From NCBI GenBank assembly GCA_963745075.1, contig CAVUWV010000017.1, positions 123,947-187,946 of the forward strand: a stretch of 64,000 nt of DNA, read 5' to 3'. Positions within the stretch are counted from its first letter, which is position 1. The number at the start of each line of letters is the position of its first letter. Positions 482 to 9,116 of the stretch are shown here, piece after piece. The notes beneath the pieces were generated by a model that ran no database searches, had not been told where the DNA came from, and saw nothing but the letters and a program-made list of their open reading frames with translations. This stretch comes from Candidatus Hydrogenedentota bacterium. Its GTDB lineage: Bacteria > Hydrogenedentota > Hydrogenedentia > Hydrogenedentales > SLHB01. Position numbers and translations under genes: made by a program.

Positions 482-691
482 TTACTGGCCGTCAATGACG
501 CCGTTGCCGTTCCGGTCACCCAGCAGCCCTTCGGGCAGCAGGGTCCCGCCGAACAGCCAGCCCCACCACTTCTCCATGGTCAGGCCGATGACGACGACGA
601 TATCCGTCAAGCTCATGATGTCAAAATAGTTTCTCGGCACCTGATAGGCGGTAGCCGGAAGCGCCTTCGAAACGCGACCGATGTGCTTCAT
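482..691 (-). CDS. Small peptide P1 (69 aa), MKH..PxxA leader family
   Basis: SD AAGGAGGT upstream; MKHIGRVSKALPATA leader shared with neighbours; core has a hydrophobic stretch, WWGW and a C-terminal DRNGNGVID loop. Confidence 0.8.
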   Translation of the reverse strand: MKHIGRVSKALPATAYQVPRNYFDIMSLTDIVVVIGLTMEKWWGWLFGGTLLPEGLLGDRNGNGVIDGQ

Positions 692-815: not shown

Positions 816-974
816 TTACACGTCTCGGGGATCCAAGGAGCCGTTGGTGAACCAAAGCTGATTGATGTAGTTGGTCTTGGCACCAGTACCCTTCAGCTCA
901 CCGCCCTTACCGAACCAGCCGAACCACCAAGCGGTCACCGGCGCATTCTTCGATATCTTGCGAACGTGTTTCAT
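816..974 (-). CDS. Small peptide P2 (52 aa), MKH..PxxA leader family; not in the ORF track
   Basis: Hand translation MKHVRKISKNAPVTAWWFGWFGKGGELKGTGAKTNYINQLWFTNGSLDPRDV*; SD-like GAAAGGGT upstream; alternative ATG at 980. Confidence 0.78.
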   Translation of the reverse strand: MKHVRKISKNAPVTAWWFGWFGKGGELKGTGAKTNYINQLWFTNGSLDPRDV

Positions 975-1151: not shown

Positions 1152-1304
1152 CTAGCTCTGCAGCCAGTTATCGAATAACGCGACGAGCCAGTTCTGTTGC
1201 GCAGGACGCAACTTCAACGGCCCAAAAATGTTCTTCAATTCGACCCACGCGACCTGCTCGGCACGCACGGGCTTTTCGGTCGACAGCACCTTCACATGCT
1301 TCAT
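1152..1304 (-). CDS. Small peptide P3 (50 aa), MKH..PxxA leader family
   Basis: SD GGAGGTG before the ATG at 1304; MKHVKVLSTEKPVRAEQVAWVELKNIFGPLKLRPAQQNWLVALFDNWLQS*. Confidence 0.8.
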   Translation of the reverse strand: MKHVKVLSTEKPVRAEQVAWVELKNIFGPLKLRPAQQNWLVALFDNWLQS

Positions 1305-1468: not shown

Positions 1469-3040
1469 TTACTGCGCCCCGTTCAGCGAGATCCCCATCC
1501 CTCGCAAATAATCGAAGAGTGAGAGGTCCCCGGATTGCAGTATCCACCCGGAAATCATGTTGAGGAAATCGGTTCCGCTCTGACTGGAGAAGAGCTGATC
1601 CAACTCTTGGAAGAACCCGCCCAACTGGTCGATGCTCGTGACCAGGTCCGCCGTTTGTGACGTTAACTGATCGATTCCCTCAGGAGATTCAATTGTTGTG
1701 TAAAGCTGTTCAAGCACATCAATTGCGGCCGCCTGCATATCCAGTCCGGCCAATTGCTCCTGAGAAAGAGACGCCCCGGTCTCCACCTGCTGGCCCAACC
1801 GCTGTACGGCCTGCGCAATGTCTTGGGCGGTATTGTAATCCCCTACCGCCATATAGTCTTGGCCGTATTCTAGCAGATTCTTCCCTAGATCGCAAAGGAA
1901 ATTGTACTGATCCACTCCCGCTGTCAACGCGGATACGGCCTTGGCCTGATCGGCCGGAAGCCCGCTTGCCATAAGCGCTTCCGCCTTTGCCATCGCCGAC
2001 TCCAGCGAATAGGCGCTGGCCGTGGGCAGCGTCTGCGCGATCCGCAACGCTTCCAGCGCCCCGGCGAGGTCGTTCTGTTCCAGCCGAAGCTTCGCTTCCA
2101 GGTAGTAGGGCAAGGCGTTATTGGGATCGAGCGTATGGAGCGTCGGCACTTGTTCGAGGGCTTGCGTCTCCGATTCCGGCGTCGCGGTCTCGTCCAACGC
2201 TTTTGCCAATTCAAGCTGAGCGGGCGCGTTGTCTGGCACCTGCCCCACCACCGTCAACAACACTTGAGCCGCTTCTTCGCCCGTAAGCGATTCCGCCGCC
2301 CCCAACTTCACCTGAGGCGACGAATCCGGACTTCGAGCCAAGTCGATTGCCTCCTCTTTCTTGAGGCTGGCCCATTGCATCAGGCGGCTTATTCCCCGGC
2401 TGTCATTCGACGCGTCGCGCCGTGCCGCCAGGATTTCGTCCATCGTCGGCGTGTCCAGCGCAGGGCTTTCCGTAGCTTCCATCTCGCCCGAAGGCTGTCC
2501 GGACCGCGTCTCGTCGGGGATTCGTTTGCGCTTCTCATCAAACTGCTTGAGCCGAGTCGCGATCGTGGTGTCCAGTTGAGGCGTTGGCTCGATGGCGCGT
2601 TCTATCGGAGTCTTCTCCGGCGTAACCAATTGATTGCCGCCGCCGGGCACGTTCGCCGGCGTTGGAACTTCTTTGAACAGCACGTACCCCAGCAAGGCGA
2701 GAATCGCGGCCGCCGCCGCCGCTACACCCAACCAGGTCCGGCCACGCTCCCGCCGGCGCGCGCGTTCGGCATCGATGGACACAATCTTCTCGGGACGATT
2801 GGCCTGAGCTACGGTGTCCATGACGGATTCGACCAAGTCGACCTGAGGTGTCTTGGAGGCAAAGGCGCGGCCCATGGCATCCAAGTCCGCGTAAGCGGAC
2901 TGTAGCCACATGTGCTCCCGGCGATACGCGTCCGACGAAGCGATTTGCGCTTCCACGCGCCGCGCCTCCTCGGGGCTCAACTCGCCCTCCAGGAGAGCCA
3001 GTAGCTCTTCCTGGATCTTTTCCAGTTCCCCAGTGTTCAC
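1469..3040 (-). CDS. Putative anti-sigma factor: N-terminal anti-sigma-like domain, one TM helix, TPR-like exported domain
   Basis: LLALLEGELSPEEARRVEAQI (zf-HC2-like region lacking the Cys ligands); TM WLGVAAAAAAILALLGYVLF; TPR-like LDPNNALPYYLEA; overlaps the ECF stop. Confidence 0.75.
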   Translation of the reverse strand: MNTGELEKIQEELLALLEGELSPEEARRVEAQIASSDAYRREHMWLQSAYADLDAMGRAFASKTPQVDLVESVMDTVAQANRPEKIVSIDAERARRRERGRTWLGVAAAAAAILALLGYVLFKEVPTPANVPGGGNQLVTPEKTPIERAIEPTPQLDTTIATRLKQFDEKRKRIPDETRSGQPSGEMEATESPALDTPTMDEILAARRDASNDSRGISRLMQWASLKKEEAIDLARSPDSSPQVKLGAAESLTGEEAAQVLLTVVGQVPDNAPAQLELAKALDETATPESETQALEQVPTLHTLDPNNALPYYLEAKLRLEQNDLAGALEALRIAQTLPTASAYSLESAMAKAEALMASGLPADQAKAVSALTAGVDQYNFLCDLGKNLLEYGQDYMAVGDYNTAQDIAQAVQRLGQQVETGASLSQEQLAGLDMQAAAIDVLEQLYTTIESPEGIDQLTSQTADLVTSIDQLGGFFQELDQLFSSQSGTDFLNMISGWILQSGDLSLFDYLRGMGISLNGAQ

Positions 3041-3678
3041 AAATCGTCCTTTGCCGACTGATATACGTCCCGCAGCGACTTCAGGATGCGGTGCAGTCGG
3101 GTTCGCACCGCGCCCTCCGTGCTGCCGACGATTTCCGCAATATCGCGTGCCTGCATCCGTTCAAAGAACCGCAAGGTCACGATTTCCCTGGACTCATGAT
3201 CGAGCGAGGCCAGCGCTTCCGCCAACAACTCATAGCGCTCGGCCATCATGAGAAGCCCATCCGGCCCGTCTGCCGGCGACTGCAACACCTCGCCGGTCTC
3301 CTCCCGGGCGCTGCTCGCGTATTCCTCGAGGGATTCCATGGGTACCGCCTTCTTGCGCTTCAACTCGTTCAGACAAAGGTTGCGCGCGATGCACAGTACC
3401 CAGGGGCGAAACTTTCGACTCGCGTCGAACCGCGCCCGGGCCACATACACGCGGATGAACGTTTCCTGGGCCATTTCCCGGGCCCGTTCCACGTCCCGCA
3501 CGTAGTGGAGGCAGAATCTGAAAATGTCGTTCTGGTACCGGTGTACGAGCGTGCCCAGAGCGTCCGCCGTGCCCTCGCACAGGAGGACCATCAGCGCCTC
3601 ATCGGTTTGAGTGCTCGCGCTCAACCGGTAATCCATTGCCGGTAACGAGTTACGAGGGCCTTGCGGTTTCGTTGCCAC
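3037..3678 (-). CDS. ECF sigma-70 factor (start uncertain, possibly 3639)
   Basis: Region 2 (AREMAQETFIRVY...FRPWVLCIARNLCLN) and region 4 (REIVTLRFF...DIAEIVGSTEGAVRTRLHR). Confidence 0.92.
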   Translation of the reverse strand: MATKPQGPRNSLPAMDYRLSASTQTDEALMVLLCEGTADALGTLVHRYQNDIFRFCLHYVRDVERAREMAQETFIRVYVARARFDASRKFRPWVLCIARNLCLNELKRKKAVPMESLEEYASSAREETGEVLQSPADGPDGLLMMAERYELLAEALASLDHESREIVTLRFFERMQARDIAEIVGSTEGAVRTRLHRILKSLRDVYQSAKDDL

Positions 3679-5296: not shown

Positions 5297-5325
5297 TTGA
5301 CAAGGGTTTTTCCCTATGCTAGACT
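5297..5325 (+). promoter_or_regulatory. Sigma-70 promoter candidate
   Basis: TTGACA-N17-TAGACT with a TG extended -10. Confidence 0.65.
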
Positions 5326-5386
5326 GCCGATGCTCGCAAGCGGAAGCGTTGTATCTCTTTATAATGGAGAGGAGGGTCTCGTGGGA

Positions 5387-5764
5387 ATGTTCAAGAAATC
5401 CTGGGTGTCGTTTTTCGCGCTGGTGCTGGTGGCTGCGGTCGTGATTACGCCGTTGGCCGTCGTCGCGGAAAGCTATGACCCCGATCAGGAAATTCCCGCA
5501 CCGACCGGTTTCGAAAAGCGGCTGACCAAGCTGGGCCGGGGCCTGTCCAACGTATTGCTGGGCTGGGCGGAAATTCCGGTGACCTTCGATGAGAAACTCA
5601 AGGAAGGCAAGCCGCTGGGATACCTCGTCGGCGTGGTACCGGTACTCGGCACGACCCGCGCATTCCTCCGTACGGGTACGGGCGTGTTCGAGATGGTCAC
5701 GTTCCCGGTGTCCGACCTGGAAGTCAATTTCGAGCCGATCCTGGAGCCCGAGTACATCTTCTGA
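5387..5764 (+). CDS. Exosortase-system-associated protein (TIGR04073-like)
   Basis: Signal peptide, then KLGRGLSNVLLGWAEIP and RTGTGVFEMVTFP. Confidence 0.75.
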   Translation: MFKKSWVSFFALVLVAAVVITPLAVVAESYDPDQEIPAPTGFEKRLTKLGRGLSNVLLGWAEIPVTFDEKLKEGKPLGYLVGVVPVLGTTRAFLRTGTGVFEMVTFPVSDLEVNFEPILEPEYIF

Positions 5765-6973: not shown

Positions 6974-8050
6974 ATGCATCTCCTTAAACTGACCTGCGAA
7001 AACTTCCGCTGCCTGACGAACCTGTCGTTCGGCCCGCACTCGGGCGCAAACGTCATTTGCGGAGACAACGCGCAGGGAAAAACCTCCATTCTGGAGGCCA
7101 TTCTGTACTTGACGACATCCAAAAGCCACCGCACCAACGTGGAGCAGGAACTCGTGCGGCGCGGCGAAGCCGGATTTCGATTGAGCGCATCGGTGCGGCG
7201 GTGCGACCGGGAAGTTTCTTTAGAAGCCACGTGGTGGCAGGGCGCAAAGCGTATCCGGGTTAATGGGGTGAACCAGACCCGCGTCAGCGACCTGCTCGGG
7301 AAGATCAACGTTGTCTTTTTCTCCCCCGAGGACGTCGGGCTCGTCCGGGGGTCCGCATCGCTCAGGCGCACCTTCCTCGACATGGAACTGTCGCAATTGA
7401 GCCCGCGCTATTTGCACGCCCTGCAGCAGTACCGGCTCGTCGTGCGCCAACGCAACGAACTCCTGCGTCAACCGCGACCCGATGCCGCGGTGCTCGACGT
7501 GTGGGACGAGCAACTCGCCACCCATGGCGTTGTGCTCATGGATGAGCGCCGTCAGTTCGTCGAAGCCCTCGCGCCGAACGCTACTGCCGCGTACACGGCG
7601 ATCGCCGGTCACGAGCCCCTGGTGCTCACGTACCGCCCCGACGTGCGAGATGGCACGCCGTTCCTCGACGTGCTTGCCGCGTCCCGTGCCAACGACCTCC
7701 GCCAGGGCGTCACCACCCGGGGTCCTCATCGCGATGACATACTGTTTGCCGTCGATGAAAAAGCCGCCCGCCCCTTTGCCTCCCAAGGCCAACAGCGGAC
7801 CGCCGCACTCGCACTGAAACTCGCCGAACTGAAACTTATCCACACGCGCGTCGGGGAGTATCCCATCCTGCTGCTTGACGACGTGTTTTCTGAACTGGAC
7901 GCCAACCGGTCGCGCCGGCTGGTCGAGTCACTTCCCGCGAACGTCCAATGCATCATGACCACGACCGACCTCACCGACAAGGAAAGCCTGTTCCCGAAAG
8001 GCTGCGCGCGGTTTACCGTGAAGTCGGGAACGATCGACAGCGTCGTCTGA
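6974..8050 (+). CDS. recF: DNA replication/repair protein RecF
   Basis: ENFR, Walker A GDNAQGKTSILEAI, GPHRDD, ASQGQQR, PILLLDDVFSELD. Confidence 0.96.
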   Translation: MHLLKLTCENFRCLTNLSFGPHSGANVICGDNAQGKTSILEAILYLTTSKSHRTNVEQELVRRGEAGFRLSASVRRCDREVSLEATWWQGAKRIRVNGVNQTRVSDLLGKINVVFFSPEDVGLVRGSASLRRTFLDMELSQLSPRYLHALQQYRLVVRQRNELLRQPRPDAAVLDVWDEQLATHGVVLMDERRQFVEALAPNATAAYTAIAGHEPLVLTYRPDVRDGTPFLDVLAASRANDLRQGVTTRGPHRDDILFAVDEKAARPFASQGQQRTAALALKLAELKLIHTRVGEYPILLLDDVFSELDANRSRRLVESLPANVQCIMTTTDLTDKESLFPKGCARFTVKSGTIDSVV

Positions 8051-8152: not shown

Positions 8153-8326
8153 CTAATCGGCGCAGCTTCCGCCGCCCTTGGAACACTTGATGCAGTCCGC
8201 GAGACTTGGCACGCCGAAGAGGGGGTATTCGCCGGCCAGGAACCCCCTGAAGCAATCCCAAAGGTTGCTTCCGACAGCCAATGCCGGCAGCCGCTTCATC
8301 CTGGTAACACGCTTTACATGACTCAT
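8153..8326 (-). CDS. Small peptide P4 (57 aa), MxH..PxxA leader family, 4-Cys core
   Basis: SD GGAGGGAG before the ATG at 8326; MSHVKRVTRMKRLPALA|VGSNLWDCFRGFLAGEYPLFGVPSLADCIKCSKGGGSCAD*. Confidence 0.75.
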   Translation of the reverse strand: MSHVKRVTRMKRLPALAVGSNLWDCFRGFLAGEYPLFGVPSLADCIKCSKGGGSCAD

Positions 8327-8605
8327 CGGGACTCCCTCCAAGTTCGACGAGAGCACCATCTGCCCATACCAACATGGCGACGGCCCCCTCGTGCGGTAAA
8401 CGCTTTTCTGCGCTGACCCCTCGTGGCGAGTGGGTGCCTGACTCGCCAATTGGCGTGAGCCACGCACAGTCCAACGCTCGCCGGACGAATCACGAATGCC
8501 CCAGATTGTCGGCTCCTGGATACGTCCTCGATTGGACTATACTCGGCCGAGTATCCCCCGTATGGAATGGCCCCTGCCATTTAGCCCCAAGCCCCATAGA
8601 GCGCC

Positions 8606-8634
8606 AGTATATGTGCTCTCTCCGATTTCGTCAA
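8606..8634 (-). promoter_or_regulatory. Near-consensus sigma-70 promoter pointing toward P4
   Basis: Minus strand TTGACG-N17-TATACT. Confidence 0.7.
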
Positions 8635-8759
8635 CGCCGCTACTGACGCCCATCTTCCTTTCCGGTCCCATTTGTGGCCGATTGGCGAAGGGGCTCCCGG
8701 ACGCGTTAGAATACGGTTCTACGTGAAGCATTGTGTTTCTTCCAATTCCGAGCATATCC

Positions 8760-9116
8760 ATGGCGACGCGCAAGAAAAATGATTCCGACCGGCAAGCTCC
8801 CGCTGGTGTTGGCGAAATCCTCGAATCCCTGAAGGCCAAAACCCGCTTGGGCAAGCAGCTCAATCAGGCCCAGATCTGGGAGCAGTGGCCCGAGGTCGCC
8901 GGACAATACCTCTGCGGGCACGGTCATCCGGTTACCGTGAAAGACAAGACCTTGCACGTCGAAGCGTACAGCGCGGTCTGGATGCACAAATTCGCATACC
9001 ACAAGTGGGACATCATCAAACGAATTAACCGGATTGCGGGCCAGGAATTGGTGTCCGACATCTTCATACTGCTTGGCGACGGCTCGCAGCCCGGCCCTTC
9101 ACAAGATGACGTGTAG
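8760..9116 (+). CDS. dciA: DUF721/DciA family protein (replicative helicase loader)
   Basis: WEQWPEVAG...HP...LHVEAYSAVWMH...IIKRIN pattern; canonical position between recF and gyrB. Confidence 0.8.
   Translation: MATRKKNDSDRQAPAGVGEILESLKAKTRLGKQLNQAQIWEQWPEVAGQYLCGHGHPVTVKDKTLHVEAYSAVWMHKFAYHKWDIIKRINRIAGQELVSDIFILLGDGSQPGPSQDDV

Follow-up and report, generated by a model that had tools for sequence, protein, structure and literature searches.

The P4 gene at the recF-dciA junction

We analysed a 64,000-nt stretch of DNA (the window) from the 6.8-Mb genome of a Candidatus Hydrogenedentota bacterium, referred to below as G000. A short ORF, P4, was found on the minus strand between recF and dciA, together with candidate expression signals. 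The features of this junction are as follows.

6974..8050, plus strand: recF (PF02463), flanking gene, convergent with P4
8092..8132, minus strand: intrinsic terminator-like hairpin and tail of P4 (13-bp hairpin at 8132-8102, T-rich tail)
8153..8326, minus strand: P4 precursor gene, an ORF of 57 aa, assigned from orthologues and dN/dS
8156..8275, minus strand: P4 core, residues 18-57, with Cys25/45/48/55, Lys47 and Lys50 (K50 is the candidate acyl acceptor)
8276..8326, minus strand: P4 leader, residues 1-17, with an N-terminal H-V-K-R-V-T motif, a P14-x-x-A17 end and no hydrophobic h-region
8332..8339, minus strand: Shine-Dalgarno (SD) sequence GGAGGGAG of P4, 5 nt before the ATG, invariant in 6/6 genus genomes
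8348..8391, minus strand: 5'-UTR hairpin adjoining the P4 SD on its upstream side, conserved across 6 genomes of the genus
8606..8634, minus strand: sigma70-type promoter TTGACG-17-TATACT of P4, found by sequence scan, hexamers conserved in the genus
8707..8712, plus strand: TAGAAT, a -10-like hexamer upstream of dciA in G000, G003, G004 and G005
8760..9116, plus strand: dciA (PF05258), flanking gene, divergent from P4; gyrB and gyrA come next

The first-pass annotation had placed P4 antisense between recF and dciA. It is indeed on the opposite strand but overlaps neither gene. The four-Cys core was read as it had been described, with cysteines at residues 25, 45, 48 and 55 of the ORF translation, and the leader does carry two extra residues, running 17 residues to PxxA as against 15 in the related peptides P1-P3. 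An SD, a promoter and a terminator belonging to P4 had also been proposed, and all three were found. Both promoter hexamers are kept in 6/6 genus genomes, including two in which the gene lies elsewhere; the spacer between promoter and SD differs in length and sequence across the genus, whereas hexamers and SD stay the same. Both the SD and the hairpin of the terminator are kept in 4/4 aligned genomes. Promoter and terminator are each the sole match in 1 kb (shuffle means 0.4 and 0.8), and either match taken singly is not beyond chance. The 5'-UTR hairpin sits within a 5' UTR of about 270 nt; RNAalifold with six sequences gave 18 pairs, of which three show two-sided change and several are broken. 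No Rfam match was obtained for the recF-dciA junction, this hairpin included, and P4 itself had no match in Pfam, NCBIfam (E<=1) or the ESM Atlas.

A genome search found P4 in 11/135 phylum genomes, G000 included. After the match in G026 had been left out for its internal stop, orthologues remained in nine other genomes: 5/5 other genus members, 3/3 of a second genus and one genome of another family. Pairwise dN/dS ranged from 0.07 to 0.41 (10 pairs from five genus genomes; G002 was excluded for a one-codon indel), and 106/173 differences among four genus genomes fell at third codon positions. In 15 P4-subfamily proteins, down to 33% identity, M1, H3, P14, A17, C25, G32, S41, D44 and C45 are invariant. 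C48 and C55 are present in 14/15 and were lost jointly in one protein (P0307), the orthologues carrying 4, 6 or 7 Cys in all. K50 is found in 10/15, and the other five have a Lys elsewhere in the last 15 residues.

We considered whether the ORF does not code for protein at all, or whether translation begins at the GTG at 8467 and yields an unrelated 104-aa protein; the second of these risks had been raised at the outset. In G000 and G005 the frame stays open over 127 codons, and some of the sequence upstream is conserved within the genus. Against this stand the dN/dS values and third-position differences given above, and the SD is invariant at the ATG. The 8467 codon is not conserved as a start: upstream of the ATG, G003 has a shifted frame, and in the four more distant orthologues the frame closes within 14 codons; the residual upstream conservation coincides with the 5'-UTR hairpin. 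We consider this explanation hardly credible, and on comparative sequence grounds P4 can be taken as confirmed as a real, separately transcribed gene that starts at the ATG.

We searched 40 relatives and read the recF loci of 29 in order to examine the junction. In 22/29, recF and dciA abut directly, with dciA within about -40 to +47 nt, as had been expected for a junction that is empty in relatives. Inserts of 2.1-5.1 kb in G003, G004 and G005 hold P4 and two further genes of 269 and 149 aa, which are absent from the junction in G000, and the G021 junction holds about 6 kb of other genes. In G015 and G002 no dciA was found in the DNA read, and the G001 contig ends. P4 lies in other neighbourhoods in G001, G002 and four distant orthologues, with the same promoter in G001 and G002, which argues that the P4 unit is self-contained and has relocated. 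The earlier placement of P4 as an insertion in a normally contiguous block was thus right, but the unit is not tied to recF-dciA, because two of the five other genus members and all four more distant orthologues have it elsewhere; two more genes, moreover, share the insert in G003, G004 and G005. Judged from these comparisons, recF-dciA is a variable insertion site and not part of P4 function. The TAGAAT hexamer probably gives dciA-gyrB-gyrA a promoter of its own in the genus.

The 269-aa and 149-aa insert proteins (L031:11630-12885, L033:2172-3424, L035:7748-9000) are unannotated and apparently secreted; G000 has no match to the former and only a distant one, on C14, to the latter. In G005 an 894-aa ECF sigma factor fused to carboxypeptidase-regulatory/Ig-like repeats is encoded between recF and P4 (L033:4274-6958, minus strand).

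A leader-peptide family dispersed through the genome

P4 shares its N-terminal leader with an array of three short genes near the start of the window, which were identified by profile scans.

482..691, minus strand: P1, family member (array)
816..974, minus strand: P2, family member (array)
1152..1304, minus strand: P3, family member (array)

Motif and profile scans of G000 gave 27 aligned family members of 32-73 aa on 13 contigs and a probable 28th of 88 aa. The suggestion that four copies in the window meant many per genome was therefore correct. None of P1-P4 has a Pfam or NCBIfam match. P4 fits the M-x-[HR]-[IVL]-x-x-[IVLM]-[ST] start preceded by an SD. The condition named at the outset as refuting its membership, failure to score on a profile of further members, did not hold: P4 was recovered by profiles built without it. 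It ranked 25th of 411,301 start candidates with a profile in no training set of which it occurs, and 32nd of 77,324 short ORFs with a profile trained solely on 71 operon-linked peptides from other genomes. The latter profile placed 26 of the 27 G000 members in the top 34 of the 77,324 ORFs. The leader score of P4 is among the lowest of the family members. With shuffled N-termini, a mean of 5.7 of 172,805 reached the P4 score, none of them with a strong SD.

In the family, PxxA or [KRQ]A closes the leader at residue 12-21, and P4 conforms. None of this leader sequence is a hydrophobic stretch, for which reason the leaders are not Sec signals. P4 was considered separately as a Sec/SPase I substrate and rejected, since there is no h-region before the AxA-type site; the maximum 7-residue hydropathy of its leader is 0.19 (family median 0.44). 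Within this leader, H-V-K-R-V-T is the presumed strand for binding an RRE and P14-x-x-A17 the presumed cleavage site. Behind the leader the G000 members other than P4 have unrelated cores, and core diversity is extreme.

We looked for local machinery beside P4 or P1-P3. This was rejected because their neighbours are uvrD, an ECF/anti-sigma pair, SprT-like, HDOD, recF and dciA, and because the neighbours of the other, dispersed G000 members are unrelated to one another (61 proteins scanned of about 200 called). The ECF sigma/anti-sigma pair (window 1469-3678, minus strand) lies directly upstream of the P3-P2-P1 array on the same strand, and pair and array are kept together in G002 and G003. Also in the window, at 5297-5764 on the plus strand, is an exosortase system-associated protein (TIGR04073, above cut-off).

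At the level of the phylum, a DNA pattern of SD plus leader was found in 131/135 genomes, with 728 matches compared with 22 for the reversed control, a count that includes ordinary gene starts, such as those of phosphofructokinase-like genes. Because of these, the pattern counts were not used for co-occurrence and matches were read individually.

A candidate maturation operon on another contig

The peptides that trained the second profile come from a conserved gene cluster, which in G000 was found by domain searches.

G000:C20:133.7-140.6 kb, on a different contig from P4: candidate operon

The operon holds two precursors, three free GNATs (GNATa, GNATb and GNATc; PF13302/PF13420), a CPBP/Rce1 protease (PF02517, E 1.2e-9), an ABC ATPase and an ABC-2 permease. 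It also encodes a 640-aa fusion protein in which a CteB-like RRE is joined to a radical-SAM barrel, half a SPASM domain and a GNAT domain. By sequence the best PDB match of the fusion is CteB (5wgg_A, E 1.5e-20), the N-terminal RRE included, and its model (pLDDT 86) matched 5wgg/5why first and SpeG/RimL-type GNATs next. The fusion is present in 124/135 phylum genomes and in 83/86 high-quality ones. Of 35 operon loci read, 14 end too soon; 19 of the 21 that reach far enough show the same order with 2-5 leader peptides upstream, and in the other two (L122 and L127) no upstream leader peptides were detectable. The operon also occurs in a second class and in another family, and some lineages have two free GNATs, not three. 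A tblastn search of plasmids with the fusion N-terminus gave no match. In G000, plsX and fabG converge on the 3' end of the operon (L066:8663-11535).

The CxxxCxxC motif is kept in 0/115 full-length fusion homologues, and the fusion scores 77.7 bits against TIGR03974, for which the cut-off is 425. Judged by motif loss, the radical-SAM barrel is catalytically dead. Four SPASM cysteines (393, 396, 402 and 425) are kept in 115/115. A CxCxxC has been gained in the RRE strand region (residues 23-28 of P0001; L048:188-2107, minus strand) and is present in 98-99% of the 115 homologues; it is a possible metal site near the leader His and may bind metal together with that residue.

We next compared the leaders with those of SCIFF peptides. 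In the 15 ScfB-type loci read (of 75 returned), a SCIFF-type precursor was present in 14, with three distinct precursor N-termini, which scored 19.8, 11.7 and 6.0 on a leader profile built without SCIFF. In 11 of the 14 loci carrying one, the SCIFF precursor ranked first among short ORFs on this profile. The CteA chain was not recovered when PDB sequences were searched with the family profile or with a single member. In CteB the RRE binds the CteA leader, which extends the RRE beta-sheet (PMC6231123). A CteB-type RRE and a matching N-terminal leader are both present in the Hydrogenedentota family, so each of the two descends from the SCIFF pair.

Co-occurrence was followed in individual genomes. 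Among 10 genomes with no or marginal fusion match, 0/16 motif matches were an SD-led ORF of 28-80 aa. All five sister genomes with the fusion carry SD-led leader peptides of this size, the genomes being kin and the pattern reflecting perhaps few loss events. On the other side, true leader peptides occur in G101 (60% complete) and G102 (88%), where the search did not find a fusion. A predicted complex of the RRE (residues 1-98) with P4 scored 0.03 and was counted neither way. It had been proposed that the family is dispersed and served in trans by shared machinery. The dispersal stands, with members on 13 contigs. A candidate for the shared machinery exists in the operon on C20, its physical link with P4 being inferred. 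We consider it likely that P4 takes part in this pathway at all.

Alternatively, P4 could have no need of the operon and be a small CxxC protein of the cytoplasm, with a metal-binding or redox role, or else a regulatory peptide; the leader similarity would then be ancestral or incidental. P4 lies on a contig other than that of the operon, has a CxxC motif and a low leader score, and possesses its own conserved promoter and 5'-UTR hairpin. This reading is nevertheless unlikely, as M1, H3, P14 and A17 are as invariant as the Cys in the 15 subfamily proteins, distant orthologues bear the canonical family leader, and about 27 other members have unrelated cores behind the same leader.

CPBP/Rce1 proteases are characterized by the motifs EExxxR, FxxxH and HxxxN/D, and the operon CPBP keeps EExxxR, FxxxH and HxxxD in an alignment of 30 homologues. 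GNATs bind acyl-CoA through an R/QxxGxG/A loop; in the operon this loop is non-canonical in GNATc and absent from GNATa, GNATb and the fused GNAT, which look degenerate. Among the free GNATs, GNATc is the best conserved and has SWRNRSC and N..SWR as invariant blocks. The nearest GNAT folds are SpeG/RimL-type acetyltransferases, not lipid transferases. A term search for CAAX, CPBP and Abi in a review on the leader proteases of RiPPs gave no match (PMC10885120), and for this reason the role of the CPBP protease rests on operon context.

Lysine, cysteine and the proposed pathway

The earlier reading had singled out the four Cys of the P4 core. Across the family, the conserved core residue is Lys and not Cys. 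It is present in 126/126 distinct cores (a set that includes one probable false positive) and is the sole residue found in all; Ala (121/126), Leu (116/126) and Thr (106/126) are more frequent than Lys but not universal. By sequence cluster, Lys is present in 43/43, compared with about 30/43 expected from matched protein C-termini (P about 1e-7). It is missing in 12 of the 34 non-members among the top 60 ORFs of the operon-linked profile. For the G000 cores alone, with 8.1% Lys, 27/27 is not significant against their own composition (p 0.13). In most single-Lys cores the residue follows a hydrophobic helix, a few residues from the end, though the excess of Lys after a hydrophobic window is modest (17 vs 11.9; 31 vs 24.2). 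P4 has K47 and K50 in its core; in a low-confidence model (pLDDT 58.9) the core is predicted to form two short helices, 21-30 and 42-49, the second of which is capped by K50.

Cys is absent from 62/72 operon-linked cores. Disulfides or thioethers had both been suggested for the P4 Cys; we favour the former. Disulfides C25-C45 and C48-C55 are predicted, a pairing derived from the single joint loss of C48 and C55 (1/15) together with the invariance of C25 and C45. Thioethers are unlikely, since the motif needed for catalysis is gone from the cognate radical-SAM homologue. For P4 to be a ranthipeptide or sactipeptide, an active radical-SAM would have to install them in trans. The leader is SCIFF-like, and one radical-SAM of G000 (C36:219923, with a frameshift in the assembly) has an intact motif and weakly matches PqqD/RRE. 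Set against this are the 0/115 count and the low frequency of Cys in operon-linked cores; P4 lacks the SCIFF Cys spacing, and no G000 protein reaches the TIGR03974 cut-off, the only other match looking like an anaerobic sulfatase maturase type. Such a route is very improbable.

We propose that P4 is a stand-alone precursor of a phylum-wide, RRE-dependent pathway. Leader residues 2-9 would bind by adding a beta-strand to the RRE, in the manner of CteA on CteB. One of the GNATs, with GNATc docked on the fusion the likeliest, would acylate a core Lys, most likely K50 in P4; the CPBP protease would cut after P14-x-x-A17, and the ABC-2 system would export the core, whose cysteines would form the two predicted disulfides outside the cytoplasm. 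This would give a miniprotein of about 40 residues, acylated on Lys and held by disulfides, that is located in the envelope or secreted. For this full scheme, with Lys acylation at K50, cleavage at Ala17, export and disulfides, we judge the chances to be about even.

The same pathway may also operate without Lys acylation. The dead radical-SAM and degenerate GNATs would then be a non-catalytic receptor or chaperone that passes leader-tagged miniproteins on to the CPBP protease and the ABC exporter. If the GNATs did any chemistry, it would be plain acetylation, of the newly formed N-terminus for instance, and the Lys would be a recognition or second cleavage determinant. Several observations agree with this: the acyl-CoA loops are non-canonical or missing in all four GNAT domains, the nearest folds are the SpeG and RimL acetyltransferases, core sequences are extremely diverse, and the operon CPBP is weakly similar to myxosortase-type C-terminal proteases (E 0.002-0.005). 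The invariant blocks of GNATc argue the other way, as does the universal Lys, which is what an acyltransferase acceptor predicts. We regard the version without acylation as possible but somewhat doubtful.

If the proposed acylating pathway is right, an uncultured phylum runs a near-universal peptide pathway in which a dead radical-SAM is the targeting platform for acyl transfer to dozens of unrelated cores. It would be an undescribed RiPP class and a case of pseudo-enzyme repurposing, and could offer a very promiscuous tool for site-selective acylation of Lys, needing a tag of about 17 residues. From the window comes a client subfamily that contains Cys, relocates and is conserved across genera: with P4, the clients would include conserved miniproteins, probably folded by disulfides, which travel through the genome as self-contained units and go unnamed in standard annotation. 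A bolder version, which we put forward tentatively and think rather improbable, is that a ranthipeptide maturase has turned into a non-radical leader receptor at the core of a general lysine-lipidation and export route. The lipobox Cys, Lgt and LspA would here be replaced by a Lys acceptor, an RRE-read tag, a GNAT acylase and an Rce1-type protease, making this a second 'lipoprotein' pathway, one for miniproteins. Any gene gaining the 15-17 residue tag and a helix-capping Lys would then become a membrane-anchored envelope protein, and folded disulfide miniproteins like P4 would be among the proteins so anchored.

We compared the family with four known systems. It resembles the SCIFF/ranthipeptide pair (CteA-CteB; TIGR03973/TIGR03974; PDB 5WGG, 5WHY) in its N-terminal leader motif and in a maturase homologue with RRE, barrel and SPASM. 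The Hydrogenedentota maturase, however, lacks CxxxCxxC and part of the SPASM Cys and gains the RRE CxCxxC and a C-terminal GNAT; SCIFF has one conserved six-Cys core whereas there are about 28 unrelated cores here, and the operon adds GNATs, a CPBP protease and an ABC-2 exporter. The P4 core gave no NCBIfam match at E<=1 to the six-Cys TIGR03973, has four Cys, and its spacing is unlike that of the SCIFF precursors read.

Acylation of Lys by a GNAT has precedent among RiPPs in the selidamides (kamptornamide, phaeornamide, nostolysamides), which likewise have a GNAT-family maturase and a Lys presumed to be the acyl acceptor (PMC8784127). Selidamides use NHLP/Nif11 leaders, LanM and PF00583 GNATs, whereas the family has leaders of 12-21 aa, PF13302/PF13420 GNATs and an RRE/pseudo-radical-SAM. 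No NHLP or Nif11 leader was found in P1-P4 by Pfam or NCBIfam; the C20 operon has no LanM among its seven genes, and its GNATs match PF13302/PF13420 only, not PF00583.

The prochlorosins (ProcA/ProcM, SyncA/SyncM) share the arrangement of one promiscuous machinery with tens of hypervariable, scattered precursors, 29 and 79 in number (PMC10783134), but have their own leader, lanthionine chemistry and a patchy spread; here the system is near-universal in the phylum and the P4 core is conserved across genera. Daptides are RRE-dependent and have several short amphipathic precursors per cluster, an invariant core residue, an intramembrane protease and an ABC transporter (10.1101/2023.03.08.531785). 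They differ in an invariant C-terminal Thr, an RRE-site-2 protease fusion and dehydrogenase/aminotransferase/methylase chemistry, none of which is in the C20 operon.

From these comparisons the family is a candidate new RiPP class that descends from the SCIFF pair and falls outside both SCIFF and selidamides. No description of the pathway was found in a search of the main texts of mostly open-access literature on Hydrogenedentota peptides and RiPPs; judged by their listings, the papers linking Hydrogenedentota with RiPPs are surveys on other subjects.

Several further loci were noted during these scans. Secreted M4 (thermolysin-type) protease genes are followed by five and two leader peptides at L041:4977-8201 and L047:4494-6911, respectively. 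These peptides form an Arg-type subfamily with two Cys and a Lys in between, and an M4 C-terminal fragment lies inside the first array (L041). P0196 (656 aa) is another CteB-like protein without CxxxCxxC and with a different C-terminal domain, which looks like an S26-type peptidase; it may be an independent leader receptor of the dead radical-SAM kind. A stand-alone PqqD/RRE gene next to glycosyltransferases (G000:C26:71884-72607, L068) is apparently unrelated to the leader family, and the gene adjoining it is presumably lasso B2-like. At L055:6503-7600 (G000:C10:373502-374600, plus strand), a 51-aa ORF with two TTxxxGEE repeats precedes an ATP-grasp (RimK-like, PF08443) gene that is apparently frameshifted in the assembly. 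We take this locus to be a probable graspetide cluster, and the N-terminus of its 51-aa ORF ranked 15th on the leader profile from operon-linked peptides.
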